DNA from: a virus | DNA: 64,000 nucleotides | Virus record (IMG/VR): IMGVR_UViG_3300042516_003452 | Span: 20,493 to 84,492 of that record | Reading direction: 5' to 3' (one strand) | Shown here: piece after piece, positions 29,602 to 46,758 of the stretch | Position numbering within the stretch: the first letter of the stretch is position 1 | Layout of the letters: every line of letters starts with the position of its first letter | Translations under genes and position numbers: made by a program | The notes under the pieces: generated by a model | What the model was told of the DNA's origin: nothing | The model's database searches: none | Seen by the model: only the letters and a program-made list of their open reading frames with translations

Positions 29602-29629
29602 GGACCTGGACATGTCCTTAAACTGTCCA
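29602..29629 (+). ncRNA. H-type pseudoknot, copy 1
   Basis: GGAC-CTGGACAT-GTCC-TTAAAC-TGTCCA. Confidence 0.75.
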
Positions 29630-29651
29630 TTCCTTTTACTCAGTTCAAACC

Positions 29652-29789
29652 ATGACTCAACTCGATCCCAACTACAACGCTGACTTGCTTGATGCCATGG
29701 CCGACATGGCATACGAACAAGAGCAAGCCATGCGTGAAGAATATGAACTCAACCCACCTGAACAGGAGACTTATGATGACCAAGCATGA
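29652..29789 (+). CDS. Small acidic protein (45 aa)
   Basis: Hand translation: MTQLDPNYNADLLDAMADMAYEQEQAMREEYELNPPEQETYDDQA. Confidence 0.6.
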   Translation: MTQLDPNYNADLLDAMADMAYEQEQAMREEYELNPPEQETYDDQA

Positions 29790-29864
29790 ACACGACGATG
29801 ACATCATCTTGCATGTCATCGTTATCATTTCAATCTTCATTCAAATCATTCTGGAGGCACTCCA

Positions 29865-30233
29865 ATGTCTTACATCTCAGAACTCAAGAAGTTCTACCCC
29901 AAAACTTACAAGGTCCGTTACGCAGTCAACGCCTACAACACTCACAAGTACTTCGAACACGAAGACCCAACGGTCATCACCGTCCACCAAACAACGCTCA
30001 ACTACGGCGGTCCAGAGGAAGGTGGATGGTGGTACCAGCAAGGCAACCCAGTCCTCAGCCACTGCATCTTCTCCAAGAAGCAGGCGATCCAAACCTACGT
30101 CAAGTACTTCGAAGAGTACGAGATCGAAGGTCAGCCCAGTCTTGGAGACACCACAACAAGCTCAAACATTGAGCTAAGTTTCTCCAACGGATACGCTCAA
30201 GTGTATCCTCAGATTCGTCCACACTATTGCTAA
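29865..30233 (+). CDS. Hypothetical protein
   Basis: 122 aa, GGAGG SD, YGGPEEGGWWY motif. Confidence 0.7.
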   Translation: MSYISELKKFYPKTYKVRYAVNAYNTHKYFEHEDPTVITVHQTTLNYGGPEEGGWWYQQGNPVLSHCIFSKKQAIQTYVKYFEEYEIEGQPSLGDTTTSSNIELSFSNGYAQVYPQIRPHYC

Positions 30234-30236
30234 GTC

Positions 30237-30479
30237 ATGCAAGCAACTGCTGTACCAAACCTCAGCATTAATCAACGCAACATCTACATGTATTTCCTGA
30301 ACCACAGGAAGAAGTACGGCAAGACTCCTTGCTTCGTACCAAAGTGTACAACTCAAGTATCAAGGCTTGATCAATATCTCAACGCCTTAACGAAACTTGA
30401 GCAGTACGGATTACTACGCGTTGAACGGTGCAGTGATAACTACACCGGCTGGATCATGACTGAACCTAGACAACACTAG
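30237..30479 (+). CDS. Winged-helix-like hypothetical protein
   Basis: LSINQRNIY...YLNALTKLEQYGLLRVER. Confidence 0.55.
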   Translation: MQATAVPNLSINQRNIYMYFLNHRKKYGKTPCFVPKCTTQVSRLDQYLNALTKLEQYGLLRVERCSDNYTGWIMTEPRQH

Positions 30480-30496
30480 CGTTATACGCACATAAG

Positions 30497-30537
30497 CCTG
30501 GGCATCACCGACGTAAGTACGGTGTGTAAGTCCCAGG
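30497..30537 (+). ncRNA. GG-CA/GUAAGU-CC internal-loop hairpin, copy 3
   Basis: CCTGGG-CA-T-CACCG-ACGTAAGTA-CGGTG-T-GTAAGT-CCCAGG. Confidence 0.7.
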
Positions 30538-30557
30538 ATTCACCTCAACCTAAACCA

Positions 30558-30833
30558 ATGACCTATCCCGAAGTCAACTGGAAGAAGAACGAGTATCACC
30601 AACTGCAAGAGGTGGTGAACCTCCTCAAAGCAATCCAAGAACGTGAGAGCAAGCGCCATCAAATGGACGAGCATCTCACTCCACATACCGCAGATGTGGT
30701 ACTGGAAGTCATAGGCATGCTCGAAGATGAGATCGACTATGACCCAAGTCCTTCCGAAGGGGGCGAACCGCCTATCACACTGGATGAAATGCATACTGCT
30801 GCATGGAAAGAACATCAAGCCATGCATAGCTAA
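30558..30833 (+). CDS. Hypothetical protein
   Basis: MTYPEVNW..., 91 aa. Confidence 0.6.
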   Translation: MTYPEVNWKKNEYHQLQEVVNLLKAIQERESKRHQMDEHLTPHTADVVLEVIGMLEDEIDYDPSPSEGGEPPITLDEMHTAAWKEHQAMHS

Positions 30834-30973
30834 CCCCCCTGCACCCCCCGAAGGGAGTACCAGGAGCTAACCTTCTATTAGATAAGACATACTTATCTGT
30901 TGCTCTCTGTTACTTCCCTTCCTTACCCCTTGACTACCCTGGTAGACTCAACACACTTACTCAACTCATCTCA

Positions 30974-31180
30974 ATGAAAGACAACACTCCTCGCATACCA
31001 GACTCACTGGATATGCAAAGACTTCAAGCCATGCAACTTGTTGCTCGCATGAAGGAAACATCAGATCGTCTCGGCATCGGATTCATCGGGGGCTTTATTG
31101 CCCCCAATGGAGAGAAATTCGTCATGTCCAATATGGACGATGAAGACTACAACGCACTCATGCCGGAGGATCTGAAATGA
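30974..31180 (+). CDS. Hypothetical protein
   Basis: 68 aa after ACTCAACTCA leader. Confidence 0.6.
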   Translation: MKDNTPRIPDSLDMQRLQAMQLVARMKETSDRLGIGFIGGFIAPNGEKFVMSNMDDEDYNALMPEDLK

Positions 31181-31244
31181 ATACCTTATTCATCGCAGTA
31201 CTTTCTGTGATGATTATTTGTGGAACAATCATGATTTTAGAGAA

Positions 31245-31442
31245 ATGACCAAGCGTTTGCCCATCAGCTTTGATCGCACCATCCATGGTGTGAACATCAC
31301 CGAACACGGTGTCAAATCTTATAGCAAAGCAGTGAAGCTTGGTCCTTTCCAAGTAACACTCAATGCTAGTCCGAATGGTGTCAAGGGATCAATCAGTATC
31401 CCTGGCACAGGACTTAGCATTCCAAACATTAAGATAATCTGA
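31245..31442 (+). CDS. DUF4236-like protein
   Basis: KAVKLGPFQVTLNASPNGVKGSISIPGTGLS. Confidence 0.55.
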   Translation: MTKRLPISFDRTIHGVNITEHGVKSYSKAVKLGPFQVTLNASPNGVKGSISIPGTGLSIPNIKII

Positions 31443-31448
31443 AGAATT

Positions 31449-31625
31449 ATGACCTATCAAGAACTTTTATCTCAACTTGAAGTAATGAGTCAAGAACAAT
31501 TAAACATGGATGTAACTGTTTATGTCTGTGATACTGAAGAATATTATGCAATCCAAGATGAAATTGTTTTTGCCACAGAAGAATGTGGCGTACTTGATAT
31601 AGATCATCCCATATTGTATTTGTAA
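31449..31625 (+). CDS. Small acidic protein (58 aa)
   Basis: Hand translation: MTYQELLSQLEVMSQEQLNMDVTVY...LDIDHPILYL; more AT-rich than neighbours. Confidence 0.6.
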   Translation: MTYQELLSQLEVMSQEQLNMDVTVYVCDTEEYYAIQDEIVFATEECGVLDIDHPILYL

Positions 31626-31630
31626 GTAAC

Positions 31631-31656
31631 TGGGCATCCTTACGGTGTAAGTCCCA
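31631..31656 (+). ncRNA. GG-CA/GUAAGU-CC internal-loop hairpin, copy 4
   Basis: TGGG-CA-T-CC-TTAC-GG-T-GTAAGT-CCCA. Confidence 0.65.
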
Positions 31657-31684
31657 AACCTTGTCCACTTACTCAATTCAACTT

Positions 31685-31873
31685 ATGTCTGCTTACACTG
31701 AAGACCTTACCATGTTTGATCGAATTAATCTGGCTGCCTGCGCACAGCGCAGAGCAACAGATAATCTATTTGATTCAAATCGTTGGAATGGCGAGTACGA
31801 CACAGCACGTTTGTGGATGAAGTATCGCCTCATCAAGACCACCACTTATTCGTACATTGACGAAGACTCATGA
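31685..31873 (+). CDS. Hypothetical protein
   Basis: MSAYTEDLTMFDRI... Confidence 0.55.
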   Translation: MSAYTEDLTMFDRINLAACAQRRATDNLFDSNRWNGEYDTARLWMKYRLIKTTTYSYIDEDS

Positions 31874-32127
31874 CTGTCCTTGCAATCGAAGACACCCTAT
31901 TCACTGACACCCATGTCACTGTTACAGCAGTTGTTGACGAAATGCGGTTGCTTTATCACGCAACTCATCTCGACCCTGAAGAGTGGGCTCCTGCATTGTG
32001 TACAACAACTGTTGAACTGGATCCAGAGGAACCAATCCCTCTTGATGAAGATGGCTTCTGTGCCTATCTTGATCAGCTCGATCCTCAATGGGAACTGGTC
32101 GAACGCGATGACTTCGATCTAGATTGA
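31870..32127 (+). CDS. Acidic hypothetical protein
   Basis: 85 aa, ATGA coupling. Confidence 0.6.
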   Translation: MTVLAIEDTLFTDTHVTVTAVVDEMRLLYHATHLDPEEWAPALCTTTVELDPEEPIPLDEDGFCAYLDQLDPQWELVERDDFDLD

Positions 32128-32148
32128 TCGACTAATCATCTGACCAAT

Positions 32149-32176
32149 CGTCCTGGGCATGACGTTAAACTGCCCA
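32149..32176 (+). ncRNA. H-type pseudoknot, copy 2
   Basis: CGTC-CTGGGCAT-GACG-TTAAAC-TGCCCA. Confidence 0.75.
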
Positions 32177-32197
32177 TCCTTTTACCCATTCAAATCA

Positions 32198-33922
32198 ATG
32201 CAATTCCAACTCCCCTCCAACCTGCAAACCGAACTCCTTGCTTATGACCCAACACTGAAGGTGTTGGCTAAGCAGACTAGGACCGCATCAACCAAGAAGG
32301 CTAAGTATCCCCTCGGTAACATTCCGCACCTTATCCCACATAACGTGGTGCGCGAATCAGATCAGCAAGCTGCGATTGATGATATCAACCAGCAGAAAGC
32401 ACCTGATCGTTACAGAGTATTTACCACGCCTGTGGACGTAGCAACTCCACAGGCCAGACTCAAAGTCATTGCCATCTTGTATCACTACGAACAAGTATGG
32501 TACGCAGCATGGCTACCTCCCAAGCAGCAAGCTGATGAGTATGTGTATGGCTATGCCTACGCATTCAAGAACACAGCGGCTGCTGCTAAGACTGCACCCC
32601 ATCACATCTGGACCAGCAAAGACAAGTGCATCGAGCACGAAGGTGCTCGTGGCGTGCAGACCTTTACTTATTCAATGAACATCACCGAGGGTGATGTTCA
32701 ATCAAGTGAAGGTAGTGGCTGGCGTGCCTACCAATGGCAAGCCTTTAATCTTCACTGCCAGAAAGGACGCGAGATTATTGAGCATTGCGTCCGTCCATAC
32801 GAAGCAAGCCTACGGGAAAATATGCCCACATGGTCTGATTCCCGTGGATTGTTTGATCGTATCCGCTGCAAGAACGTCTTTGATGCTGCTGACATTCCTC
32901 CAAAAATGGCCGAGCTTCTTGATCTAGAGCAAGGTCTAACTGTTGATAACTTACTCAATGCAGCAATTGAATTCAACAAGAACCCTAACTTTCCATCATC
33001 AACGTTTTGTGTACTGGAAAGAATCAGTCACATCATTTCCAAGCCAGCAATCAAGAAGCTGCTGCAGGCAGAGCTTGATCGCTGCACACTTGCATACAAC
33101 AACCCTAATAACACTGAGCGCAAGCCAATTACTCAAGGCTTTAGAACCTTTGTCCACGTCATTGATTCCATTGACTGGATCAACAGGCTATGGCCTGACT
33201 GCCCACTTGATTACTACCAAACCTATTACAAAGAACTTCGTTACATCAGACTGAGTCAAGTGCGTACAAGCAGCATTAGCTCCAACTCAAATGCATTTGT
33301 TAGTTGGTTGCGTGAACACATGCCTGTTGCATCGATGTTCACAATGCTGCGCAAACAGCTCGAACAACAAACCTTGACTGGTCGAGATGCGGAGGTTGGC
33401 TATGCACGCTTTAGTTTCTTTGAACTAAATGACACATTTTCCATGGCAATCCGTATCCTTGACCATGGCAAAGAACTTGCACCACCCAAGCGTTGGCGCA
33501 TTGATGACTTCCATGACTATGTGCAAGCTGAATCCTGGAAGATCCAGAACCCTAACGAATCGTTGCGTCAAGATCTATTCCCTGAACCCATCAGGGTTAC
33601 ACGCAATGGTGAGACCTGGTCATTTTTCCAGCCTGTTGACACACATCAACTAGCTATGTGGGGCCAGGCCGTACGCAATTGCGTCGGCTCTGCATCACAC
33701 TATGCTGATGACATCAAGAAGCGTAAGCACTTCATCGTGCTGTGCATGATTGATGGTAAGCCCACATTCACCATCCAGTTGGTGGTTGACATGGGCCTGA
33801 TGTCCGTCAAGCAAATCTCTGGTGTCGCTAACCAGCGGCTCACTGAAGACCAACGTGAGGCTTACACAGAAGCCTTCCGTGAGGTCTTGCAACAACGGGA
33901 GAAGCAGCTACAATCTGCCTGA
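32198..33922 (+). CDS. PcfJ-domain protein
   Basis: C-terminal QLAMWGQAVRNCVGS...KQISGVAN motif; start MQFQLP at 32198. Confidence 0.7.
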   Translation: MQFQLPSNLQTELLAYDPTLKVLAKQTRTASTKKAKYPLGNIPHLIPHNVVRESDQQAAIDDINQQKAPDRYRVFTTPVDVATPQARLKVIAILYHYEQVWYAAWLPPKQQADEYVYGYAYAFKNTAAAAKTAPHHIWTSKDKCIEHEGARGVQTFTYSMNITEGDVQSSEGSGWRAYQWQAFNLHCQKGREIIEHCVRPYEASLRENMPTWSDSRGLFDRIRCKNVFDAADIPPKMAELLDLEQGLTVDNLLNAAIEFNKNPNFPSSTFCVLERISHIISKPAIKKLLQAELDRCTLAYNNPNNTERKPITQGFRTFVHVIDSIDWINRLWPDCPLDYYQTYYKELRYIRLSQVRTSSISSNSNAFVSWLREHMPVASMFTMLRKQLEQQTLTGRDAEVGYARFSFFELNDTFSMAIRILDHGKELAPPKRWRIDDFHDYVQAESWKIQNPNESLRQDLFPEPIRVTRNGETWSFFQPVDTHQLAMWGQAVRNCVGSASHYADDIKKRKHFIVLCMIDGKPTFTIQLVVDMGLMSVKQISGVANQRLTEDQREAYTEAFREVLQQREKQLQSA

Positions 33923-33972
33923 GCCCGCACGGTTTACCAGCCTTAGCCTCGATACTAGGGCTGGTTTCAACT

Positions 33973-34200
33973 ATGACCGACTACACCGATGATCAGCTAC
34001 TCGCTATGGCTATGGCCAACATTGGTGAGTACATCACTGACAACTCACCGCAGTACATCCTGATTGACGAAGATCCTCGCAATGAGGATGACTACGACAC
34101 ATGGGACTATGGCACTGAGCCATTACCCCAAGATCACACTTGGCACTCCACATCAATTGATGTAGAGGTAAGTCCAAGTGACGCAGACGTGACGGAATAG
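33973..34200 (+). CDS. Acidic hypothetical protein (stop lies inside tRNA-Leu)
   Basis: 75 aa, D/E-rich. Confidence 0.5.
   Translation: MTDYTDDQLLAMAMANIGEYITDNSPQYILIDEDPRNEDDYDTWDYGTEPLPQDHTWHSTSIDVEVSPSDADVTE
34137..34180 (+). ncRNA. GG-CA/GUAAGU-CC internal-loop hairpin, copy 5
   Basis: CACTTGG-CA-CTC-C-ACATC-AATT-GATGT-A-GAG-GTAAGT-CCAAGTG, ending 2 nt before tRNA-Leu. Confidence 0.7.
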
Positions 34201-34268
34201 GTATACGTAACGCACTTAAAATGCGTCGGCCATTGGCCTTGCGGGTTCGACTCCCGCCGTCTGCACCA
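34183..34268 (+). tRNA. tRNA-Leu (anticodon TAA)
   Basis: Acceptor GCAGACG/CGTCTGC-A-CCA, anticodon arm ACGCA-CTTAAAA-TGCGT, long variable arm, GGTTCGACTCC T-arm. Confidence 0.95.
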
Positions 34269-34291
34269 ATCCACTTACTCAACTCAAGACC

Positions 34292-34654
34292 ATGCAATTC
34301 TTTGCTGCTTTCAAGTCCCTCATCCCTGAGTTCCATGCTTATTCAGATGAGGACAACCGCTACAACCTTGGTGCCACCTGGACTGCAGCCGATGGCCTGA
34401 AGGACTATCACAACCTGGAGCTACGGTACATCCGTAACTCTGAGCGTCTTGCTCTCCAGGGTGAGCCCTGTCCTGATGGCAGCTGGCGCTACGTCGAGCC
34501 CAGTGGTGCAGTCCATACCATCAGCCCTGAACGTGCTAAGCACTTCATGGAGCAGACACAAGCTCATGCCACACTCATGGTTGGCATGCTTGATAAGTTA
34601 CGAGATGCTGGCATCCTCGATCAGATGGTAGACACCACGGCAGAACCTGCCTAA
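34292..34654 (+). CDS. Hypothetical protein
   Basis: 120 aa after ACTCAACTCA leader. Confidence 0.65.
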   Translation: MQFFAAFKSLIPEFHAYSDEDNRYNLGATWTAADGLKDYHNLELRYIRNSERLALQGEPCPDGSWRYVEPSGAVHTISPERAKHFMEQTQAHATLMVGMLDKLRDAGILDQMVDTTAEPA

Positions 34655-34672
34655 GATCACTGCGGAATGTTC

Positions 34673-34701
34673 GGCCCCTGCGCAAGCGGGGGTCTTTTCT
34701 T
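34673..34701 (+). terminator. Intrinsic terminator
   Basis: GGCCCCTGC-GCAA-GCGGGGGTC-TTTTCTT. Confidence 0.75.
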
Positions 34702-34702
34702 C

Positions 34703-35032
34703 ATGATCACTCCAGCTCAGTCAGAGATAGTTACAGATGTAACTGAACTCATTGCAGATTGTATCCCTGATTCCGAATGGGATCGGGTACGCAATGCAAT
34801 CGTCGAACGCATTGTCGACAACATGCCATCACAAGTTTTGCTGCAGTTAACTGACAGCATCGATAACTTTGATCTGGCTGAACTAATCCTCATTACCCAC
34901 TACAAGGAAGCACCAAATCTTGAGTTGATTGTTGACGCATTCAAACTCATTGGTGCTGAACAAACTGCTGACCTCCTCGACTCACTCAACATTCAACAAG
35001 AGAATGGCATTCCAGAAGGCGATCCTTCCTGA
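34703..35032 (+). CDS. Hypothetical protein
   Basis: MITPAQSEIV..., acidic and helical. Confidence 0.6.
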   Translation: MITPAQSEIVTDVTELIADCIPDSEWDRVRNAIVERIVDNMPSQVLLQLTDSIDNFDLAELILITHYKEAPNLELIVDAFKLIGAEQTADLLDSLNIQQENGIPEGDPS

Positions 35033-36060: not shown

Positions 36061-36253
36061 CATGGTTGTTCAAGCAATCATTTGGAGTGTAGTCATCACA
36101 GGATTCAGCCTCCTACTCGTTGGCATGATCTTTGGTGAGCCAGAAACAACCGAGGATAAATTCAAAGTTGTTGACAACTACAAAGATTGCCAAGTCATCC
36201 AGTACAGTCCAAGCAACGCTGCTCGCTACCAGTACTTTCTTCACTGTCCATGA
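36041..36253 (+). CDS. Small membrane protein
   Basis: N-terminal TM helix; KFKVVDNYKDCQVIQY. Confidence 0.55.
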   Translation: MIDHRTSMVVQAIIWSVVITGFSLLLVGMIFGEPETTEDKFKVVDNYKDCQVIQYSPSNAARYQYFLHCP

Positions 36254-37173: not shown

Positions 37174-37180
37174 GGTTTTA

Positions 37181-38172: not shown

Positions 38173-38200
38173 GGACCTAAGTAAGTCCTTAAACTGCTGA
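38173..38200 (+). ncRNA. H-type pseudoknot, copy 3 (weaker P2)
   Basis: GGAC-CTAAGTAA-GTCC-TTAAAC-TGCTGA. Confidence 0.6.
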
Positions 38201-38233
38201 TTAGTTTTTCTTATCATTCAATTCAACTCAACC

Positions 38234-39004
38234 ATGAAACTTCTCAAGTTTTCCAAGGGCAACGGCAAGCTCAGCAACCGCCTGATCTTTAGCCTGCCTG
38301 CTGGCTACTCATGCCCACACGCTGGTGTGTGCAAGACCTTTGCTGATCGCACTACTGGTGCCATCACTGACCTGCCTCAGTACACAGGTGTGACAGCTGA
38401 ACGGGACTTCCGTTGCTTTGCTGCCATGGCAGAGGTACGGCCTAACGTGCGGGAAGCGCGTTGGCACAACTGGGATCTGCTGCGTGAAACCATTCACATG
38501 AATGGGAATCAAGCCATGTTGATTCGTGACTTGATCGACCTGTCTCTCCTGATGCATCCGCCCAAGAAGCTGGTTCGCATCCATGAGTCTGGTGACTTCT
38601 GGACTGAGAACTATATGAAGGCTTGGATGATGGTTGCCCAGGGTAGGCCCGAACAAAAGTTCTATGCCTACACCAAGTCCCTTGGTATGTGGTACAATCT
38701 GCGTGACATGATTCCACCCAACTTCTATCTCACTGCATCGCACGGTGGTACGCTCGACTACCTAATGGAAAAGTATCCCGAAGTATTCACCAGGGTTGCT
38801 CACGTTGTATACACAGAAGAACAAGCCGCAGAGCTTGGTCTTGAGATTGACCATGACGACAGCCATTGTCTTGGTGACAAACCATTCGCACTACTGGTCC
38901 ATGGTTCCCAGCGGGCTGGTAGTGAGGCAAGTCAAGCCATCTCTCAACGTAAGAAAGAAGGTGGATTTGTGGGATACGGCAAATCAAATCAGAAGACAAG
39001 CTGA
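38234..39004 (+). CDS. GP88-like protein (Cys-containing, radical-SAM-like fold suspected)
   Basis: FSLPAGYSCP...C...CFA, VRIHESGDF, FYAYTK motifs. Confidence 0.6.
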   Translation: MKLLKFSKGNGKLSNRLIFSLPAGYSCPHAGVCKTFADRTTGAITDLPQYTGVTAERDFRCFAAMAEVRPNVREARWHNWDLLRETIHMNGNQAMLIRDLIDLSLLMHPPKKLVRIHESGDFWTENYMKAWMMVAQGRPEQKFYAYTKSLGMWYNLRDMIPPNFYLTASHGGTLDYLMEKYPEVFTRVAHVVYTEEQAAELGLEIDHDDSHCLGDKPFALLVHGSQRAGSEASQAISQRKKEGGFVGYGKSNQKTS

Positions 39005-41092: not shown

Positions 41093-41095
41093 ACC

Positions 41096-41272
41096 ATGAG
41101 CAACAAAACTACTGTTGAACTTACAGGAAAAGCAATTGGCTCTTTGCTTGCTTTTGTTTTGTTTTCTGTGTTGATTAAGTACGCTTTTGATTTTACCTGG
41201 TTTCAAGGATGTGTCCTTGGATATTTGTTTTGGTTAATCCGAGAAGGTATCCAAACCATTAAGAGTAATTAG
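41096..41272 (+). CDS. Small two-TM membrane protein (58 aa)
   Basis: Hand translation; T-rich, hydrophobic. Confidence 0.5.
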   Translation: MSNKTTVELTGKAIGSLLAFVLFSVLIKYAFDFTWFQGCVLGYLFWLIREGIQTIKSN

Positions 41273-41277
41273 TAATT

Positions 41278-41305
41278 CGTCCTCAGGTATGACGTTAAAC
41301 TGCCT
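41278..41305 (+). ncRNA. H-type pseudoknot, copy 4 (upstream of ssb)
   Basis: CGTC-CTCAGGTAT-GACG-TTAAAC-TGCCT. Confidence 0.75.
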
Positions 41306-41326
41306 TAACACCAACTTCTCAAAACA

Positions 41327-42157
41327 ATGAACATTGCTGATGTCTGCGCTGTCCTCATGGAACAACCCCGTGAGGTATTCACCAGTGCGACTGCATCCAA
41401 CCTGCGTGCAGTAGTTAATCTACCTCCGGTTGGTTCCAACAAAGCTCCAACTCCAGTCGAACTCAATGTCTACGGAAAAGCCTGCGATCGGTTCCGTCAC
41501 AACAAAGCAAACGACCGTCTACTTATTTACGGCTCCAAGCTACGTTTCGACGTTAACACCCGAGCGTATTCGTTACATGGAGGAGTTGTCCACCAGATCA
41601 CGGATGAGTTTCCAATCCTCAATCGCGTCATCCTCTCGGGACGTTGCGTGAAAGATCTGGATCTCAGTGATCCTCGTGTGTTTAAAACAACGCCTGATGG
41701 CTTGATGATTTGTAACCAGAGCCTTTCTGTTTACATGGGTAAGAATCAGGCTGATCTGTTTAACTTCTATGCCATCAATACGGCTAACGATAAGTTAAAC
41801 AACGCAGAGATCATTGCTAACTTCACCCGTAAAGGTGTGGGCATTACAGTGTCTGGTCGTCTGGTCACCGATGCCTGGACCGATAAGCAAAGCAATGAAC
41901 GCAAGATCAACACCAAGATCCAGGTGAATCAAATCACCTTGGCTCCCAAAGCTGATGCCACCAAGAACACTGAGTCTCAGACAAAACCTGTGCAAACCAA
42001 CACACCGGTTGCACCAAGCTCAAGTGACGCTAGCCTATGGGGCGCAGCTAACGCACCACAACCTACTGATCCCTGGACCCACGCCTCTGGCGGTGGTCTG
42101 CCTGACCTCCCTGGTCAATACTCCAACTCACCTTCATTCGACGAAGTTCCTTTCTAA
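41327..42157 (+). CDS. ssb: Single-stranded DNA-binding protein with two OB folds
   Basis: NRVILSGR...KGVGITVSGRLVTDAWTDK OB fold, extra N-terminal OB-like domain, C-terminal DEVPF. Confidence 0.85.
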   Translation: MNIADVCAVLMEQPREVFTSATASNLRAVVNLPPVGSNKAPTPVELNVYGKACDRFRHNKANDRLLIYGSKLRFDVNTRAYSLHGGVVHQITDEFPILNRVILSGRCVKDLDLSDPRVFKTTPDGLMICNQSLSVYMGKNQADLFNFYAINTANDKLNNAEIIANFTRKGVGITVSGRLVTDAWTDKQSNERKINTKIQVNQITLAPKADATKNTESQTKPVQTNTPVAPSSSDASLWGAANAPQPTDPWTHASGGGLPDLPGQYSNSPSFDEVPF

Positions 42158-42387
42158 TGACACTCCCAAGAGTCAACAACTACACGCTCTTGCAAGAGAG
42201 CGATAACTCCAGTTGCATCTACAAGTTCCAGGGTGATTACTTTCCTGATGTACTTGTTCACATGGTGGACTTTCTAAAGGGAGTTGGTTTCCTTGAAGAG
42301 ACAATCCATCGTGGAATGTACGATGCTGCTGAGGAGTACTTCAAGTACCAGCAAAGCATCTGCTCTGAGTCAAGTCCATTTGACTAA
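42157..42387 (+). CDS. Hypothetical protein
   Basis: 76 aa, MVDFLKGVGF motif. Confidence 0.6.
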   Translation: MTLPRVNNYTLLQESDNSSCIYKFQGDYFPDVLVHMVDFLKGVGFLEETIHRGMYDAAEEYFKYQQSICSESSPFD

Positions 42388-42392
42388 GAACA

Positions 42393-42420
42393 CGTCCTGG
42401 GTATGACGTTAAACTGCCTA
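42393..42420 (+). ncRNA. H-type pseudoknot, copy 5
   Basis: CGTC-CTGGGTAT-GACG-TTAAAC-TGCCTA. Confidence 0.75.
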
Positions 42421-42441
42421 ACTCCAAACCCTGAACTAACT

Positions 42442-43458
42442 ATGACCGCATCCATGACTACTAAGAAAACGTCTGCACTTGCCACTCGTGGACTGGAATC
42501 TTTCAAGATGTTCCAGTCCAAAGAATTTGTATCTGGTTACCAGAACCTTGTTACAATTCAACCCCTGAACAAATCAAAAGTTCGTGGTTGGTTTGTCCGT
42601 AAGTCCGACCTGGATACTTGCGGATGGAATGCTACTGAAGATGACTTTGATTCCAGTTCTGTTATTTGGAACTACAAGCAGACCTTTGGTATGGCGCCCA
42701 ATACCTCCATTGAGGAGGGCCTCAACTTTGTTGCGCCTCGCATGCAGATCTTGTTGCGTTCTCCCCTGATGGTTGAAGAAACCACAGGGATGCGTCAAAC
42801 GATTGGCACCTTTGAGCATCCAGAGGTGAAGGAAATGTTTGAGAACGACAAGCTGGCTGCTGATCTTGCCAATAGTAAAGGTGAGATGTACAAGCGTAAG
42901 TACAGCGTGCGTACCAAGTATCTGGTGTATGTGCTGACCAAGGACAACAAGCGTGCTCATAAGATCCCCATGGTCCTGACCTTGAAGGGATTGAATGGCA
43001 CTGATGTGTCCGAGAAGGTCAAGCTGTATGAAAAGGAAATGTCCAAGTGCCTGAGCAAAGCACTGGACTCTGAGGTGCCCCTGGCATTCAACGAAAAGTT
43101 CTATGCCACAACGGTGTTTATCCCCATGCTTGCCAACGAGATGCGTGGTGCCAACAACGTTGAGATTTGCGCCATCGAATCCTTCGAGATTCCTGACTAC
43201 AGCTCCCAAGATGAAGCGATTAGCTCACTGAATCGCCTCAGCATTCCCGATGAAGATCGTGAATCAACCTGGAAGTTCCAGGAAATGTTTGGTGATTACA
43301 TCAACCAACACGCTCGTCAGGATGCAGAACGCCTTGGTGGTGCCTATGGAATCAAGCAAGGTGTTGAAATCCTTCCCGTGTCCCGTACTACGGATGCAGT
43401 TGAAGTAAAAGCTTTACCTGCTCGTGACCCGATGACTGGTGAGGATGAGTCACTCTGA
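42442..43458 (+). CDS. Hypothetical replication/recombination-module protein (possibly DUF5895-like)
   Basis: About 338 aa next to ssb; family assignment from memory only. Confidence 0.5.
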   Translation: MTASMTTKKTSALATRGLESFKMFQSKEFVSGYQNLVTIQPLNKSKVRGWFVRKSDLDTCGWNATEDDFDSSSVIWNYKQTFGMAPNTSIEEGLNFVAPRMQILLRSPLMVEETTGMRQTIGTFEHPEVKEMFENDKLAADLANSKGEMYKRKYSVRTKYLVYVLTKDNKRAHKIPMVLTLKGLNGTDVSEKVKLYEKEMSKCLSKALDSEVPLAFNEKFYATTVFIPMLANEMRGANNVEICAIESFEIPDYSSQDEAISSLNRLSIPDEDRESTWKFQEMFGDYINQHARQDAERLGGAYGIKQGVEILPVSRTTDAVEVKALPARDPMTGEDESL

Positions 43459-43713
43459 TTGACCAATGATCGGGGGGTTATCCAAGCCGCCTTCAACTGA
43501 AACATTGTTGAAGATAAACATATCTTGGACTAATCCCCTGATTACACCTTGACGATTAGTGGCGATCTGCGCAAGCAAGGTCGCCATTTCTTTTAAGGCA
43601 CTTACCGAATTACATTCTTCTATTGATCGTTTGATCTTTTCGAGCCAGAACTTGTCATCAAGCGTTGGCTCAATCTGGAATTGTGTAAGAGGTACGTACT
43701 TAATCTCGTCCAT
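43450..43713 (-). CDS. Hypothetical protein
   Basis: 87 aa ORF. Confidence 0.55.
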   Translation of the reverse strand: MDEIKYVPLTQFQIEPTLDDKFWLEKIKRSIEECNSVSALKEMATLLAQIATNRQGVIRGLVQDMFIFNNVSVEGGLDNPPIIGQSE

Positions 43714-43794
43714 TTTGTATTCAATTGTTACAGCAATTCTACTTCTACAGTTAAAGGTATCTACAAACTTTGCAATGTATTAAGGATTACACAC

Positions 43795-44001
43795 ATGAAA
43801 CCAGAAGACAAAGCAGCAATCAAGGCAGGTGGCGCCACGGCTTTGGTCGTTGGTACTATTGCCACATTCATGGCCAACCCTGTAGCATGGGGTGCGGTCC
43901 TCTACGGATCGTATAAGATGGCCAAGCTAGCTCGCGATCACGTTCGTGAGACCAAAGCTAAGCAGAACCGTGGTGATAAAGACCATGGTTTCTACATCTG
44001 A
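43795..44001 (+). CDS. Small membrane protein
   Basis: MKPEDKAAIKAGGATALVVG... Confidence 0.55.
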   Translation: MKPEDKAAIKAGGATALVVGTIATFMANPVAWGAVLYGSYKMAKLARDHVRETKAKQNRGDKDHGFYI

Positions 44002-44025
44002 TCTCAACTCAACCCAATTCAAATC

Positions 44026-44973
44026 ATGTCAACCCAACTCCAGAACCAGGAACTCAACACGGCGCAGGCGTCGATCTACACGCGGACGAACATCCGTCGT
44101 GCGTTCCAGGACTTTGATGACACCGACATTGCTGGGATTTATCTGCGAGGCGACAATTGTCTTGTGGTGCGCCGCGATGGTAGTGAGCAGACTTACGCAC
44201 GGGAGCTGATCAAAGCAGCATACTCAACTTATACTCATAGACTCAAGGATTTCTTTTCGTATCTTGGCCCCAATTATCGTGGCCCTAGTGTATGGCATAA
44301 CAATGCTTACATACTTTTTAAGGGCTGGAACTACACCCACGCACTGGGACACCTGACTTCCAATGCAAAACTCCAAGCCCATTGGGCGGACAAATTTATC
44401 CACATCACGGATGAACAAAAGGCAGTGGCCTTACTTCAAGGTGATCAAACCGACTTGGGGCATCTGGTTGCTCCAGACGGGTTGCGGCTTCCGAATCAAC
44501 CGCTTGACTTGGACCGTGACATGGAGGAAAAAGAGTCCGATGTACAGGCAGTCAATGCTGAACCTTATTGCTCATGTGGGTCCTTTCAGCGTCAGCTGCT
44601 TAATGTTTCAGACTTCCAAGCTGAGATCCAGGGATTCAAACCCTGGTGTATCCATCTGACTTGGTTCAATAAGTACAGAGAGCTATTGTGCAAACGTACT
44701 GAAGCACGTAACGCTAGTCCGAGTGGTACACCGGATAAGTGCGTGGCCTGGTGGTACGCACCGCCTGCTGATGCCACCAGTGATGGGCGCTTTGTTCTGC
44801 TCCATACCAAATCTGGTGCTCAGGCTCCACTGACGCACTGGCGTACTTACAAACCCAATGAGGTGTTCACTCAGAACCATGCATGGGATCTGTTCTTCAA
44901 TATGATGGAGGCTGGTTACGTTCCATTCCCTGGTGTTGCCTTACCTCAACTCAAAGCTGCCATCAAGAAATGA
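44026..44973 (+). CDS. SWIM zinc-finger protein
   Basis: YCSCGSF...PWCIHL. Confidence 0.65.
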   Translation: MSTQLQNQELNTAQASIYTRTNIRRAFQDFDDTDIAGIYLRGDNCLVVRRDGSEQTYARELIKAAYSTYTHRLKDFFSYLGPNYRGPSVWHNNAYILFKGWNYTHALGHLTSNAKLQAHWADKFIHITDEQKAVALLQGDQTDLGHLVAPDGLRLPNQPLDLDRDMEEKESDVQAVNAEPYCSCGSFQRQLLNVSDFQAEIQGFKPWCIHLTWFNKYRELLCKRTEARNASPSGTPDKCVAWWYAPPADATSDGRFVLLHTKSGAQAPLTHWRTYKPNEVFTQNHAWDLFFNMMEAGYVPFPGVALPQLKAAIKK

Positions 44974-45191
44974 GTGATCCAATCTTTGATGACATCCTTG
45001 ACTATGCTCGTAAACTTGCAACGCAACCCAAGATGATTAGTCACCTTCGCTACGAACTTGACATCCCAGAAGAGACTCACTGGGAACTTGTCAAGCTAGC
45101 TGCTGACCTTAAAATGCATCACGAAGACTACGCACTTAACGTTCTTATTGGTCATGTTGAATCTGAACTGGATCGAAAAGCTCAAGGTTGA
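44970..45191 (+). CDS. Ribbon-helix-helix-like protein
   Basis: RYELDIPEETHWELVKLAADLKM. Confidence 0.5.
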   Translation: MSDPIFDDILDYARKLATQPKMISHLRYELDIPEETHWELVKLAADLKMHHEDYALNVLIGHVESELDRKAQG

Positions 45192-45372
45192 ATGCATCGA
45201 TGAAGAGGATGGCACCATGACCATCCACATCGAGTGGGATGAAAACGATCCTGAACTTGACTACTGGACTTCTCTAGGTCCAGAAGGTCAAGAAGAGTTT
45301 ATTCTTACTGCACTGCGGAACGCTTGTGCCGCTTACACTGACACCGAAGCTTTTGATTCTGATGTCGATTGA
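45154..45372 (+). CDS. Acidic hypothetical protein
   Basis: EEDGTMTIHIEWDENDPE. Confidence 0.55.
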   Translation: MLNLNWIEKLKVECIDEEDGTMTIHIEWDENDPELDYWTSLGPEGQEEFILTALRNACAAYTDTEAFDSDVD

Positions 45373-45763
45373 CACCTACGGTTTGACTTACGAGCAGTAC
45401 GCTGAGTTCTTTCATAAGAACGTACGGTTTGCTGCCAAGCTTTACCTTGACACTTGCAACATCTTGACTGGAGAAGGTGTTGGTAACGTTGACTTCAAGA
45501 CTGTCTTGGATATGTACCAGGAAGCTGTGTACACAGCCAATGACGACTGCCGGCGTTACCAACGCATTAACAACCCTGAAGCTTTGAAAGAAGCTACGGT
45601 TGAAATCTTTGGCATTACTCCCACCAGGGAAGAGCTGATGGAAGAAATTCAATCGGTTAATGCCAAGGTTGAAGCCCTGACTGATTACGTTTCCAACCTA
45701 GTGACTATCACTACAAGTGGATTGAATGGTGTTATTGAAACCCTTGATAACAAAGAGGGTTGA
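45362..45763 (+). CDS. Hypothetical protein
   Basis: MSIDTYGLTYEQY..., 133 aa. Confidence 0.6.
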   Translation: MSIDTYGLTYEQYAEFFHKNVRFAAKLYLDTCNILTGEGVGNVDFKTVLDMYQEAVYTANDDCRRYQRINNPEALKEATVEIFGITPTREELMEEIQSVNAKVEALTDYVSNLVTITTSGLNGVIETLDNKEG

Positions 45764-45805
45764 TTTGATTGCGGCCATTACAATAACTAAAGATTGGTTT
45801 GCGTA

Positions 45806-46012
45806 ATGGCCATTAAAACCTTTAAGAAAAAACTGCCTGTTCTTATTGAACGTTTTCTTATTCGAATCAAAGTTACTTACTTGATCTGGCGCGTCAGCAT
45901 GAGTAAGCGCAAGCCTACTCGTGTCGATGACTCCTACAAGGTGTACCTCACCCTGATCCATGGAGATGCTGCTGAACTCAAACAACCCTACGTACATCCG
46001 CGCTTGCATTAA
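45806..46012 (+). CDS. Basic hypothetical protein
   Basis: 68 aa ORF. Confidence 0.4.
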   Translation: MAIKTFKKKLPVLIERFLIRIKVTYLIWRVSMSKRKPTRVDDSYKVYLTLIHGDAAELKQPYVHPRLH

Positions 46013-46053
46013 TACTGAAACGCTGTAGCATACTGCTGTTTCTTATTTGATCC

Positions 46054-46689
46054 ATGGCATTCCAAAGCGTTTGGTACGAAACAGAACTACCAAGCGACAT
46101 TGTAAAAATTCTTGAAAGCGTTCTTGAAGAAAAGTATGACGAAGACCTAATCAAGTCTGTGGTTGGTGAAGGTGGTGGTGGTGTTGTCAATGAAAAAGTC
46201 CGCAAAGCAAAGAATGCATGGCTGCCATCTACCCACTGGATCAATGGTTTTGTCATGCACTTTGCAAACCTAGCCAACGTTCAAAACTTTCGTTATGAAC
46301 TAACTGGTCTTGATGGTCAGTCATCCCAGTACACCATCTACGACAAAGGTGAGTTTTACAACTGGCATGTTGATCAGGGTGTAAGCAGTTACTACAAACC
46401 AATCAGCAATCAAACCCACGGATATTCAGAAGAGATTGTTAAAGATCACTTCTATTCTCAGGCTGAGCTGGTGCGTAAGCTTTCGTTCTCTCTCCAACTT
46501 TCTGATGATGAGGACTACGAAGGTGGTGAACTCCAGATCATGGATGAAGCCGAAGGTCTTTATACAGTCCCCAAGAAACGTGGACTGTTGGTTTGTTTTG
46601 ATTCCAGGGCTCGTCACCGTGTTAACAAAGTAACCAAAGGCAGACGTAAATCATTGGTAGGCTGGATCGTTGGTCCCCGCTGGCGCTGA
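46054..46689 (+). CDS. 2OG-Fe(II) oxygenase (prolyl-4-hydroxylase/PKHD-like)
   Basis: FYNWHVD...RKLSFSLQLS..YEGGEL...HRVNKVTKGRRKSLVGW. Confidence 0.9.
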   Translation: MAFQSVWYETELPSDIVKILESVLEEKYDEDLIKSVVGEGGGGVVNEKVRKAKNAWLPSTHWINGFVMHFANLANVQNFRYELTGLDGQSSQYTIYDKGEFYNWHVDQGVSSYYKPISNQTHGYSEEIVKDHFYSQAELVRKLSFSLQLSDDEDYEGGELQIMDEAEGLYTVPKKRGLLVCFDSRARHRVNKVTKGRRKSLVGWIVGPRWR

Positions 46690-46730
46690 TTCTCTGGTAC
46701 ACTGACTCTGCATAAACCTTGCAGGGTCGC

Positions 46731-46758
46731 TGTCCTGGTCACGACATTAAACTGACCA
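46731..46758 (+). ncRNA. H-type pseudoknot, copy 6
   Basis: TGTC-CTGGTCAC-GACA-TTAAAC-TGACCA. Confidence 0.75.

Follow-up and report, generated by a model that had tools for sequence, protein, structure and literature searches.

The window, a 64,000-nt stretch of an 84.5-kb viral genome, carries six short intergenic elements on the strand of the genes (Table 1). All six lie where an earlier reading of the DNA letters (the sequence-only reading) had placed them, and its identification of the downstream genes as PcfJ-like, GP88, SSB, DUF5895, and Gp157-like was borne out, although the Gp157-like gene scored 26.9 bits against PF05565, slightly below the 28.6-bit cut-off. The ATGs at 29652 and 46780 open short ORFs (45 and 38 aa), with the 128-aa ORF and the Gp157-like gene directly 3' of them. 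The 45-aa ORF overlaps the start of the 128-aa ORF, and no protein family matched either of these two.

Table 1. Pseudoknot elements, spacers, and adjoining genes in the window
Feature	Position	Strand	Description
Copy 1	29602..29629	+	P1 GGAC/GUCC, P2 UGGACA/UGUCCA, linker UUAAAC; 40.5 bits
Spacer, copy 1	29630..29651	+	G-poor A/C/U tract up to ATG 29652
Downstream unit, copy 1	29652..30172	+	45-aa acidic ORF 29652-29789, 128-aa ORF 29786-30172
Copy 2	32149..32176	+	P1 CGUC/GACG, P2 UGGGCA/UGCCCA; 48.5 bits
Spacer, copy 2	32177..32197	+	equivalent to spacer of copy 1
Downstream gene, copy 2	32198..33922	+	PcfJ-like, 574 aa; PF14284, E 6e-07
Copy 3	38173..38200	+	P1 GGAC/GUCC, P2 UAAGUA/UGCUGA, 5/6 pairs; 32.7 bits
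Spacer, copy 3	38201..38233	+	equivalent to spacer of copy 1
Downstream gene, copy 3	38234..39004	+	GP88 family protein; PF17338, E 1.3e-43
Upstream ORF, copy 4	41096..41272	+	stop codon exactly 5 nt 5' of fold
Copy 4	41278..41306	+	29 nt, 9-nt loop; P1 CGUC/GACG, P2 AGGUA/UGCCU; 29.6 bits
Spacer, copy 4	41307..41326	+	equivalent to spacer of copy 1
Downstream gene, copy 4	41327..42157	+	single-strand DNA-binding protein; PF00436; phrog_44, E 1e-26
Copy 5	42393..42420	+	P1 CGUC/GACG, P2 UGGGUA/UGCCUA, two G-U pairs; 46.1 bits
Spacer, copy 5	42421..42441	+	equivalent to spacer of copy 1
Downstream gene, copy 5	42442..43458	+	DUF5895 protein; PF19247, E 1.4e-12
Copy 6	46731..46758	+	P1 UGUC/GACA, P2 UGGUCA/UGACCA; 40.3 bits
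Spacer, copy 6	46759..46779	+	equivalent to spacer of copy 1
Downstream unit, copy 6	46780..47612	+	38-aa hydrophobic ORF 46780-46896, then Gp157-like gene 46899-47612

A covariance model was built from 150 copies of the fold, which included five window copies and left out the one at 41278. It recovered exactly six elements in the window at 29.6 to 48.5 bits, with the runner-up at 14.2 bits. The word TTAAACTG occurs six times in the window, each time within one of the elements, and no further element was found in the remaining 20 kb of the genome. A relaxed pseudoknot scan of shuffled genomes returned 0 to 4 matches per genome. Similar-looking pseudoknots also turned up in other genomes. Copy 2 has the family consensus sequence. 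The uniform length of 28 nt first proposed applies to five copies and fails for copy 4.

Both helices carry compensatory changes, within this genome as well as across the 150 distinct copies from phages and bacteria. P1 covaries among the window copies as originally described, and so does P2, with the correction that copy 3 retains this helix with a single mismatch (A7/G27). Standard pairs fill 95.5% of 1,480 pair cells, compared with 82.6% after shuffling and 24 to 42% in slid registers, and 181 double-sided changes were counted versus 54 expected. G-U/U-G wobbles number 156 and A-C/C-A mismatches 11, which indicates that the fold is RNA on the mRNA strand. Because copies in the same genome differ by compensatory changes, a single DNA-binding protein could not read them all. 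The assignment as an H-type RNA pseudoknot rather than a DNA site is thus well supported by the compensatory changes and the G-U excess. Copies at multi-copy loci are confined to one strand in 22 of 22 cases.

The invariant nucleotides comprise the pairs G2-C15, C4-G13, and A11-U23, together with C5 and the A-rich linker, an apparent invariance that owes part to the search pattern used. These positions would coincide with the base triples expected in pseudoknots of the BWYV and SRV-1 type. The linker is invariant within the window, as claimed, but not among relatives, where CUAAAC, UUAAAA, UUAAAG, and UAAAAC occur.

Between the fold and the start codon, the window spacers hold 0 to 1 G per 20 to 33 nt, whereas the 22 nt upstream of ORFs contain 4.9 G on average. 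The Shine-Dalgarno (SD) sequence is absent, as had been pointed out, but this is phage-wide: an SD-like 4-mer precedes 30 of 146 ORFs versus 15% of random windows. The distinctive feature of the window leaders is the G-poor spacer rather than the missing SD. Five copies end 20 to 22 nt before an ATG, marginally wider than the 21 to 22 nt first given, and the 33 nt for copy 3 stands. A fixed spacing holds only loosely, with 18 to 33 nt in the cyanophage lineage and 0 to 45 nt elsewhere.

The pseudoknot is a compact fold that recurs intergenically in some bacteria and in hundreds of phages that are not related to each other. Its carriers come from Firmicutes, Actinobacteria, Cyanobacteria, Desulfobacterota, Omnitrophota, Chloroflexi, and others; the 28-nt fold is near-identical in unrelated phages of the first three groups and in one microvirus. 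Genes preceded by it encode SSB, PcfJ-like, GP88, and scaffold proteins, RtcB, and DNA polymerase. In S-EIV1-like freshwater cyanophages, 2 to 7 copies were found in the genome stretches examined, before the same downstream genes, with S-EIVl carrying seven in orthologous places. The downstream genes are constant among these phages (N-termini MQFQLPSNL, MFESI, MTSSMTTKK, and MKLLKFS) and the upstream genes differ, so the pseudoknot belongs to the downstream unit. In phages and prophages of Firmicutes, head-scaffolding genes from at least three PHROG families have the fold in front of them. At least five independent copies lie 1 to 6 nt 5' of tRNA genes, one of them within a tRNA array.

Upstream reading frames respect the fold in phages. 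Among 127 phage contexts, no upstream ORF terminates within it, and 26 stop exactly 5 nt before it, with TAA, TGA, and TAG used alike. ORF 42157-42387 likewise stops exactly 5 nt upstream of copy 5. Five nucleotides, the spacing of frameshift pseudoknots, is the nearest that a terminating ribosome can stand without melting P1. In Omnitrophota and Desulfobacterales, a conserved, leader-like small ORF of a non-phage operon has the fold at its end; in 46 of 47 bacterial loci, this small ORF ends inside the fold in one fixed frame, with stop positions at -1, +11, or +17 relative to the fold.

No Rfam family matched the window copies, so the earlier statement that the motif belongs to no named family was nearly right; however, its layout is that of the 5' half of GP20-b (RF03003). 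GP20-b was reportedly described by Weinberg et al. 2017 as a candidate cis-regulatory RNA that precedes the GP20 head-scaffolding genes of phages. Its Rfam consensus (gGuC-a-gcccgca-GgCg-UAAAAg-ugcgg) runs through P1a, loop 1, P2a, P1b, A-rich linker, and P2b in the order of the window fold, and it shares the conserved G2, C4, G13, C15, and A11-U23. The canonical 28-nt fold of phi jlb1 aligns to GP20-b, occupies the same place before a scaffold gene, and is followed, as in GP20-b, by a second hairpin, an A-rich tail, and an SD, with a leader score of only 20.5 bits against RF03003 (gathering score, 36.2). The window copies did not match when scored against RF03003. They differ from GP20-b in having no second hairpin, other downstream genes, six copies per genome, and the linker UUAAAC rather than UAAAAG. 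GP20-b as catalogued leaves out the stand-alone fold before tRNAs, replication genes, and the bacterial small ORF.

Frameshift pseudoknots and viral xrRNAs are mechanical barriers to 5'-to-3' machines. The window fold resembles the BWYV pseudoknot in size (28 nt) and the BWYV/SRV-1 type in its short loop 1 over a 5- to 6-bp stem 2 and A-rich loop 3 over a short GC-rich stem 1, and the stop codon-to-fold gap equals the spacer of frameshift sites. Unlike those sites, it lacks a slippery heptamer and an overlapping reading frame, and the upstream ORF simply terminates. It is not predicted to adopt the ring-like topology of xrRNAs, and we know of no comparable bacterial or phage xrRNA. A further parallel is offered by Gram-positive 5' stabilizers (the aprE and gapA stem-loops, cryIIIA STAB-SD, and that of phage SP82), which block RNase J1-type decay. 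They too mark the 5' boundary of a highly expressed operon segment, and the position of the fold before scaffold and capsid genes fits this; they differ in being simple hairpins or ribosome-binding sequences serving single genes, not a cross-phylum 28-nt pseudoknot.

We favor, at a probability of roughly one in three, the reading that the pseudoknot is a mechanically stable boundary at the 5' end of the downstream unit, which it would shield and insulate. What is observed is the fold and its strand, its tie to the gene that follows, the absence of upstream ORFs from it, and how widely it occurs; the barrier or stabilizer function is our inference. The element would be transcribed within the mRNA and fold as a compact H-type pseudoknot (P1, 4 bp; P2, 5 to 6 bp), with loop 1 (1 nt) spanning the deep groove of P2 and the A-rich loop 3 (6 nt, UUAAAC) spanning the minor groove of P1. 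As part of the downstream expression unit, and acting without a dedicated phage protein, it may halt 5'-to-3' travelers such as a beta-CASP/RNase J-type exonuclease or a 5'-end-tethered RNase E or Y, as well as ribosomes finishing the upstream gene, and it may keep the unstructured G-poor leader free of pairing with upstream sequence. The cistron or tRNA precursor that follows would then be longer-lived and more expressed than the upstream part. In favor of this boundary reading, the fold is placed at steps up in expression (scaffold genes, SSB here, and tRNAs), and the breadth of carriers implies that its partner is universal or that there is none. The 5'-3' decay barrier suggested by the sequence-only reading comes close to this and is viable.

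RNase J or another Beta-Casp/RMMBL RNase is present in the carriers tested. Several observations nevertheless sit against the boundary reading. In all four Omnitrophota carriers examined, canonical RNase J went undetected, although other beta-CASP RNases are present. A tRNA requires no 5' shield, and its 1- to 6-nt gap suits a processing signal, or a 3' cap left on the upstream RNA once RNase P has cut, equally well or better. Of 200 contexts, 53 have a U-rich tract after the fold, compared with 8 of 200 in a control window. At one locus (L066), a terminator hairpin stands behind each of two tandem copies, which suggests that some copies lie at RNA 3' ends. Finally, the strong conservation could equally be explained if the fold is recognized specifically, for example by the ribosome, RNA polymerase, or RNase P.

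A role in translation is the best of the alternatives, although we regard it as improbable. Here the pseudoknot and its CA/U-rich unstructured leader would form a standby or enhancer site, or a repressor operator, for the downstream start, along the lines of T4 gene 32. Where a protein gene follows, its start codon always lies 0 to 45 nt from the fold; leaders in this lineage are G-poor and repeat-like (e.g., CAACU, ACUCA), one copy precedes the SSB gene, and the fold is kept clear of upstream ribosomes. The P22 scaffold is autoregulated post-transcriptionally, and recurrence before scaffold genes raises the variant that the fold could be a scaffold autoregulation site. However, the tRNA-adjacent copies do not fit, the distance to the SD or start varies across that whole range, and the motif is present in bacteria without these phage proteins. 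The same sequence stands before unrelated genes (SSB, scaffold, RtcB, etc.), which makes a gene-specific repressor implausible.

We hold a transcription element to be doubtful, whether a pseudoknotted terminator or attenuator with a U tract or a put-like polymerase-modifying RNA. The U-rich tract right after P2 is about six-fold enriched. The bacterial small ORFs ending inside the fold have the layout of the pyrBI attenuator, in which a ribosome translating into the fold could block pseudoknot formation; RNA polymerase would be a universal partner, and read-through matters in tRNA arrays and long late operons. Yet the U tract is absent from three of the six window copies and from all tRNA-adjacent copies, and the fold is located where expression should rise (scaffold/capsid genes, SSB, and tRNAs), not fall. 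An efficient terminator 20 nt 5' of a start codon would silence the gene, and a put-like element should occur singly in an operon rather than before particular genes.

Just as doubtful is an RNA processing signal, either a self-cleaving fold or the target of a universal endonuclease such as RNase P, which would punctuate polycistronic transcripts and leave one product with a structured end. Precedent exists in the MALAT1 3' end, made by RNase P at a tRNA-like structure beside a protective triple helix. As with small self-cleaving ribozymes, the occurrences are patchy and phage-rich, lie intergenically between co-transcribed genes and beside tRNAs, and show conservation in the core but not in the flanks. 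In SPP1, the corresponding site before the scaffold gene holds an acceptor-plus-T-arm-like element, and RNase P cleavage at a tRNA 1 to 6 nt from the fold would leave a minimal 3' overhang. The env25 pistol ribozyme begins with 24 nt, a 16-nt hairpin whose loop forms the pseudoknot and then UUAAAUAG, that resemble the motif. Pistol RNAs have been reported near phage genes in Firmicutes, where they are common (PMC4604425). They (RF02679) share with the motif the phage association, a hairpin loop engaged in a 6-bp pseudoknot, and an A-rich linker after it, but in pistol the pseudoknot 3' strand follows the P2 5' strand and the cleavage site lies in P2/P3, neither of which occurs here. The presumed UUAAAU of pistol resembles the linker UUAAAC, yet the RF02679 model did not match the motif, which has no P2/P3 substrate domain. 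At 28 nt, the fold is also far below the size of any natural ribozyme known to us, no conserved flanking nucleotides mark a cleavage site, and linkage to the downstream rather than upstream gene does not favor a 3' cap.

An operator set read by a phage-encoded RNA-binding protein, such as the SSB regulon first proposed, is very unlikely. The window has six copies in its replication module and S-EIVl has seven, before the same genes, ssb among them. Copy 4 also recalls the T4 gene 32 mRNA leader, the autogenous translational operator of an SSB, in placing a 5' pseudoknot and an unstructured purine-poor/G-poor leader before an SSB gene. Unlike in T4, the fold stands before tRNAs as well as many genes with no relation to each other, in bacteria and in phages, so it cannot be an SSB-specific nucleation site. 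Its breadth, which takes in phages and bacteria with no such protein in common as well as a non-phage operon, argues against an operator read by this phage's SSB and leaves that regulon unsupported, although a lineage-specific secondary use of the fold as an operator is possible.

We give equally little credence to a riboswitch-like sensor, in which a small ligand would stabilize the pseudoknot and alter termination or initiation. The preQ1-I, SAM-II, and guanidine-III aptamers are comparable in size and layout, many nucleotides are invariant across phyla, and P2 adjoins a U tract or SD in some copies. However, loop 2 at the junction consists of one nucleotide, which varies (U 84, A 40, C 23, G 4), and thus offers no obvious ligand pocket, the downstream genes have no common metabolic theme and some are tRNAs, and none of the Rfam riboswitch models matched. 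Least probable is a DNA-level signal with TAAACT as a -10 box, a GC-rich discriminator, and transcription starting 1 to 3 nt after the element: TAAACT retains the key A and T of the -10 hexamer, the predicted start would be the first tRNA base at two loci (L016 and L069), phages B166 and B122 have BPROM-type promoter features annotated over the element, and sigma-70-like promoters are few in the region (11 versus 24 expected), but no -35 box lies at any fixed distance, the linker variants UAAC, UAAAAC, and UUAAAG lose the -10 match and retain the fold, and two interleaved helices show compensatory changes inside a single genome, with a strong G-U versus A-C asymmetry.

The phage genome is a single contig of 84.5 kb, and the window is its last 64 kb. 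Its only named relative at the DNA level is the freshwater Synechococcus phage S-EIVl, and the sequencing runs listed for the window phage are lake-water and drinking-water DNA metagenomes. The sequence-only reading had described six pseudoknot-forming elements, and sequence inspection and a covariance model confirmed all six in place on the + strand, in the + strand replication module. The model (R1), a kind of check which that reading had proposed, drew on 150 distinct family copies, with copy 4 not among the training sequences. Exactly six copies stood out in the window, with scores of 29.6-48.5 bits compared with 14.2 bits for the next best match. All TTAAACTG words of the window (n = 6) belong to these elements. 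When the entire genome was scanned for pseudoknots under relaxed criteria, no places beyond them came up, and shuffled genomes yielded 0-4 matches; copy 3 was rejected by the scan's own filter owing to a single mismatch.

The fold consists of two interleaved helices, P1 and P2, and three loops (see table). Its proportions are those of a classical H-type pseudoknot: a single nucleotide bridges the deep groove of stem 2 (6 bp), and a stretch of six nucleotides, rich in A, bridges the minor groove of stem 1 (4 bp). Copy 3 keeps five of the six P2 pairs, and the loop of copy 4 is 9 nt. After each window copy comes an unstructured spacer that is poor in G and has no second hairpin. Start codons without a Shine-Dalgarno (SD) sequence, which had been reported as a feature of the elements, are indeed present but are the rule in this phage, and only the G-poor spacers are special. 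The downstream genes encode PcfJ-like, GP88, SSB, DUF5895, and Gp157-like proteins and include small ORFs. The earlier assignments of ssb, PcfJ-like, GP88, and Gp157-like genes stand, but the ATGs that follow copies 1 and 6 begin only short ORFs of 45 and 38 aa, respectively, with larger genes directly after.

Coordinates of the pseudoknots, their parts, and associated features in the window and in comparison loci
Feature	Position	Strand	Remarks
Copy 1	29602 (start)	+	
Copy 2	32149 (start)	+	
Copy 3	38173 (start)	+	
Copy 4	41278 (start)	+	
Copy 5	42393 (start)	+	
Copy 6	46731 (start)	+	
P1	nt 1-4 with nt 13-16 of fold		
Loop 1	nt 5 of fold		C5
P2	nt 6-11 with nt 23-28 of fold		
Loop 2	nt 12 of fold		
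Loop 3	nt 17-22 of fold		UUAAAC
Mini-ORF	29652-29789		acidic peptide (MTQLDPNYNADLLDAMADM...)
Mini-ORF	46780-46896		hydrophobic peptide (MFESLFAAVLPV...)
tRNA-Leu(UAA)	34183-34268	+	phage tRNA gene
tRNA-Pro(UGG)	52954-53025	-	phage tRNA gene
Strong terminator	34673-34694	+	
Strong terminator	39020-39054	+	
Three tandem pseudoknots	L066:4620-4796		giant-virus-labelled IMG/VR contig
Small ORF ending in fold	L203:5644-5735		bacterial locus
tRNA-like minihelix	L259:255-310		Bacillus phage SPP1, gap before scaffold gene 11
Second hairpin-pseudoknot	L265:360-395		
Second hairpin-pseudoknot	L266:430-465		
Second hairpin-pseudoknot	L260:455-490		
Second hairpin-pseudoknot	L257:455-490		
Second hairpin-pseudoknot	L261:455-490		
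Second hairpin-pseudoknot	L127:1555-1590		
Beta-Casp/RMMBL protein	L267:385-1800		~460-510 aa; metallo-beta-lactamase, Beta-Casp, and RMMBL domains
Beta-Casp/RMMBL protein	L268:1388-2917		as L267
Beta-Casp/RMMBL protein	L269:1407-2801		as L267

The window also holds two phage tRNA genes and two strong + strand terminators. Both pseudoknot-led mini-ORFs abut the next gene and are conserved, the hydrophobic one across S-EIV1-like phages. Between positions 28000 and 47999, sigma-70-like promoter matches were fewer than in shuffles (11 vs 24 ± 4.7), and terminator-like hairpins were more numerous than expected (28 vs 16.7).

Both helices vary in a compensatory manner. Within this genome, P1 occurs as GGAC/GUCC, CGUC/GACG, or UGUC/GACA, and the central P2 pair is A-U, G-C, or U-A. 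IMG/VR was scanned with a pattern leaving ten positions free, which gave at least 119 loci; among the matches listed, 94 of 124 had all four P1 pairs and at least five of six P2 pairs in the free positions. Across 148 distinct sequences, filtered at ≥9/10 pairs (unfiltered pattern matches look alike), standard pairs occupied 95.5% of pair cells; shuffles reached 82.6%, and shifted registers 24-42%. Both-sided changes were seen at 7 of the 10 pairs, and G-U or U-G pairs outnumbered A-C or C-A pairs 156 to 11. The invariance of CCUGG, A11, G13, C15, and UUAAACUG in the alignment is partly imposed by the search pattern; linker variants appear among model-based matches, and S-EIVl has pairs out of the pattern's reach (e.g., CAAGCA/UGCUUG). 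In every locus with multiple copies, all lie on one strand. Nested-fold energies of the elements are unremarkable (z of -1.7 to +0.2 for the 28-mers) because pseudoknots are not modeled by the folding. The within-genome compensatory changes and the wobble asymmetry bear out the claim of an RNA pseudoknot and exclude a DNA site, whether a dif-like site, a palindromic operator, or a promoter. A sigma-70-type promoter, with -35 and -10 hexamers 16-18 nt apart, is also rejected because no promoter-like site was found at any copy; the scan called neither a sigma-70 promoter nor a terminator on the + strand at the six copies.

The fold shares its strand order (P1a, 1-nt loop, P2a, P1b, A-rich linker, P2b) with GP20-b (Rfam RF03003), a candidate cis-regulatory RNA described upstream of phage GP20 head-scaffolding genes (Weinberg et al. 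2017). The printed GP20-b consensus (gGuC-a-gcccgca-GgCg-UAAAAg-ugcgg) has the same conserved G2, C4, G13, C15, and A11-U23. Because of this shared order and these shared nucleotides, the element is a stand-alone, multi-copy variant of the GP20-b 5' module. When the copy from Lactobacillus phage phi jlb1 was aligned to the Rfam consensus, the model stem corresponded to P2, the model loop to P1b plus the linker, and the model 5' flank to P1a; the scaffold leader of this phage scored 20.5 bits against GP20-b, under the gathering score of 36.2 bits.

The window copies nevertheless depart from GP20-b in model, architecture, and gene context. The GP20-b model gave no match at E ≤ 10 in window positions 29500-47000, in the whole phage genome, or in 111 nt around copy 2. 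In GP20-b, the first hairpin, which is pseudoknotted, is joined by another one whose A-rich tail directly precedes the SD, and this additional hairpin is missing from the window copies; the two-part layout is present in phiETA, PBC1, Javan308, A500, LL-H, and phiEF-1.1. GP20-b also lies upstream of a GP20-type head-scaffolding gene, whereas the window copies do not, though copies of the fold in other genomes do. Rfam 15 holds no model that matches the window copies, even at E ≤ 10 over 111 nt, and a scan at gathering thresholds matched only two tRNAs. The earlier statement that the motif fits no named family is thus correct for Rfam models, none of which recognizes the stand-alone form, but the GP20-b 5' module has the same layout. 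With strict filters, GP20-b was not found in 151 genomes from the order of a Ligilactobacillus carrier. GP20-b itself is only a candidate cis-regulatory RNA, the main text of the 2017 motif paper contains no discussion of it, and literature searches for the motif sequence or descriptions of it returned nothing relevant. The motif is thus a genuine relative of GP20-b, an RNA module that is widespread but essentially uncharacterised.

Many Firmicute phages carry a second small hairpin-pseudoknot, CGUGG-N6(CGUU)-CCACG-UAAAAC-..AACG, 5-10 nt before the SD of scaffold genes. It corresponds to the second hairpin of GP20-b.

Two further families are architectural look-alikes only. The motif presumably resembles pistol in sequence, but pistol has stems P2/P3 with a G-U cleavage site, whereas the window motif has no conserved sequence or stems after P2b. 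The pistol model (RF02679) had no match in the phage genome at E ≤ 10 or in 151 genomes from the order of a Cytobacillus carrier, and pistol was absent from all-family scans of window positions 29500-47000 (E ≤ 10) and of 15 phage loci (E ≤ 1). In preQ1-I (RF00522), which had no Rfam match at the window copies, loop 2 contains a conserved C that pairs to the ligand; loop 2 of the window motif is one variable nucleotide.

The observation of six elements is not only confirmed but considerably widened. Carriers include Staphylococcus phages B166, B122, 3MRA, and phiETA; Lactobacillus phages phiEF-1.1 and phi jlb1; Latilactobacillus phages; Moorella phage MTATph1, with two copies; Corynebacterium phages phi673 and phi674; Cellulosimicrobium phage DS1; Nostoc phage NMeng1; and a microvirus. 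In bacterial contigs (one genome per species), about two thirds of 120 pattern matches were properly paired. The paired copies came from Firmicutes, Desulfobacterota, Omnitrophota, Planctomycetota, Chloroflexi, Actinomycetota, and candidate phyla; Bacteroidota and Proteobacteria were among the unpaired chance matches and absent among the paired ones. The core of the 28-nt fold hardly differs between cyanophages, staphylococcal phages, and Omnitrophota, which implies a very general need.

In S-EIV1-like contigs, the fold goes with the downstream gene, with the same N-termini after it and unrelated genes upstream, and S-EIVl has seven copies at orthologous places. Outside the cyanophage lineage, a head-scaffolding protein was the downstream gene in 5 of 20 tested cases, representing three PHROG families; a scaffold gene also follows the fold in B166, phiETA, phiEF-1.1, and phi jlb1, and RtcB, a DNA polymerase, and an endonuclease are further downstream genes. 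A tRNA begins 1-6 nt after the fold in four loci, one of them inside a tRNA array, and in NMeng1 an annotated tRNA-like gene begins ~4-6 nt after it. The fold is placed where expression has to step up: scaffold/capsid genes, SSB, and tRNAs. The fixed spacing to the start codon noted earlier is a range of 18-33 nt in the cyanophage lineage; overall, the start lies 0-45 nt after the fold in no fixed register. On the upstream side, no ORF ended inside the fold in any of 127 phage contexts, and 26 ORFs, with TAA, TGA, or TAG, stopped exactly 5 nt before it. At this distance, a ribosome holding the stop codon in its A site just makes contact with the structure. Where the preceding ORF ends further off, hairpins often lie 0-7 nt upstream of the fold.

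In the Bacillus phage SPP1, a tRNA-like minihelix (stem ACGGAC/GUCCGU around a T-arm-like CGGG-UUCAAUU-CCCG) followed by a U tract occupies the position where other phages carry the pseudoknot. It had no Rfam match, and the SPP1 genome paper is silent on the gap before the scaffold gene.

We tentatively favor a reading, with a probability of about one in three, in which the fold is a 5' boundary, acting as a stabilizer-insulator of the RNA that follows. It is preferred because the fold is linked to the downstream unit, stands at expression step-ups, and has upstream ribosomes kept off it. A stabilizer of this kind would halt a 5'-3' exoribonuclease and make the RNA downstream last longer. The barrier idea of the sequence-only reading, an RNase J-resistant 5' cap, survives in this form. 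The conserved nucleotides lie where base triples would stabilize such a fold, which, with the variable junction loop, favors a self-contained, very stable structure. To our knowledge, RNase E is absent from staphylococci and lactobacilli, and RNase Y and Rho are absent from cyanobacteria, so these are set aside as general partners. This leaves a fold that has no partner at all or else a universal one, namely the ribosome, RNA polymerase, RNase P, or an exonuclease working 5'-3' or 3'-5'. Canonical RNase J was present in eight carriers, spanning Firmicutes, Desulfobacteraceae, Anaerolineales, and Actinomycetota, and was not detected in four Omnitrophota MAGs and two others. The three of these that were looked at further, MAGs with small genomes of which two are from Omnitrophota and one is labelled Planctomycetales, encode Beta-Casp/RMMBL RNases. 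A portable barrier or insulator would explain how differing protein doses arise from one long phage transcript, and would be a tiny host-independent part for synthetic biology.

Termination/attenuation and RNA processing are kept alive by three observations that a 5' boundary leaves unexplained: the tight tRNA adjacency, U tracts, and the L066 units. A U-rich tract followed P2 in 53 of 200 contexts (26%), compared with 8 of 200 (4%) in a control window; among the window copies, it is present after copies 1-3 and absent after copies 4-6. In L066, the three tandem pseudoknots are spaced 74-75 nt apart, and each of the first two is followed by a CCCC...GGGG terminator hairpin and a U tract, so that these stretches look like small terminated RNA units. 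A processing signal, polymerase-directed element, or sensor would be a new functional RNA class. A more specific proposal, which we consider improbable, is that the fold is the core of a processing event, either self-cleaving or a minimal RNase P-type recognition module, which would serve as punctuation in polycistronic phage transcripts and in tRNA arrays and produce an end capped by a triple helix, much as in MALAT1. Self-cleavage would make the fold a pared-down relative of pistol and the smallest natural ribozyme by a wide margin.

The earlier proposal of a translational regulon read by the phage SSB is not supported, since the distribution is too broad for a protein of this phage to be the general partner, and a gene-specific repressor is likewise set aside as a general explanation. 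The T4 gene 32-type operator is specific to the SSB leader and read by that SSB, whereas only one of the six window copies precedes ssb; an autogenous SSB operator is improbable because unrelated phages and bacteria carry the same fold in front of tRNAs and of genes unrelated to ssb. A -1 frameshift stimulator is rejected because such pseudoknots follow a slippery heptamer 5-9 nt upstream in an ORF continuing in the -1 frame, whereas here the fold is intergenic, upstream ORFs end ≥5 nt before it, and the preceding sequence is not slippery.

A distinct arrangement was found at 47 bacterial loci (e.g., L131, L138, L145, L159, L182, L199, L203, L224, and L239) from Omnitrophota, Desulfobacterales, Planctomycetes, Peptococcaceae, Anaerolineales, and others, in which the fold coincides with the end of a small, conserved ORF. 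This ORF of ~20-30 aa is Cys-containing, has a good SD, and reads ...YMLRPVAHCKEGC..., ...RPVAHCKEGC..., or MKRFMIPRVAHC(S/T)GGCH...; it belongs to no Pfam or NCBIfam family, and Rfam at gathering thresholds matched nothing in sixteen of the loci. Its frame relative to the fold is identical in 46 of 47 loci, and it stops at UAG (-1), UGA (+11), or the UAA of the UUAAAC linker (+17), so the pseudoknot must be opened by translation. Ahead of the ORF, a TTGACA promoter overlaps the inverted repeat ATGATAC-N6-GTATCAT. From its sequence, this version looks like a leader-peptide switch, and such a natural regulatory switch is suited to tests of mechanism. The ORF frequently precedes a gene for an Rrf2 regulator that is accompanied by Fe-S and SufC-like genes; in the locus examined in detail, the Rrf2-family regulator gene comes next, followed by the Fe-S and SufC-like genes.
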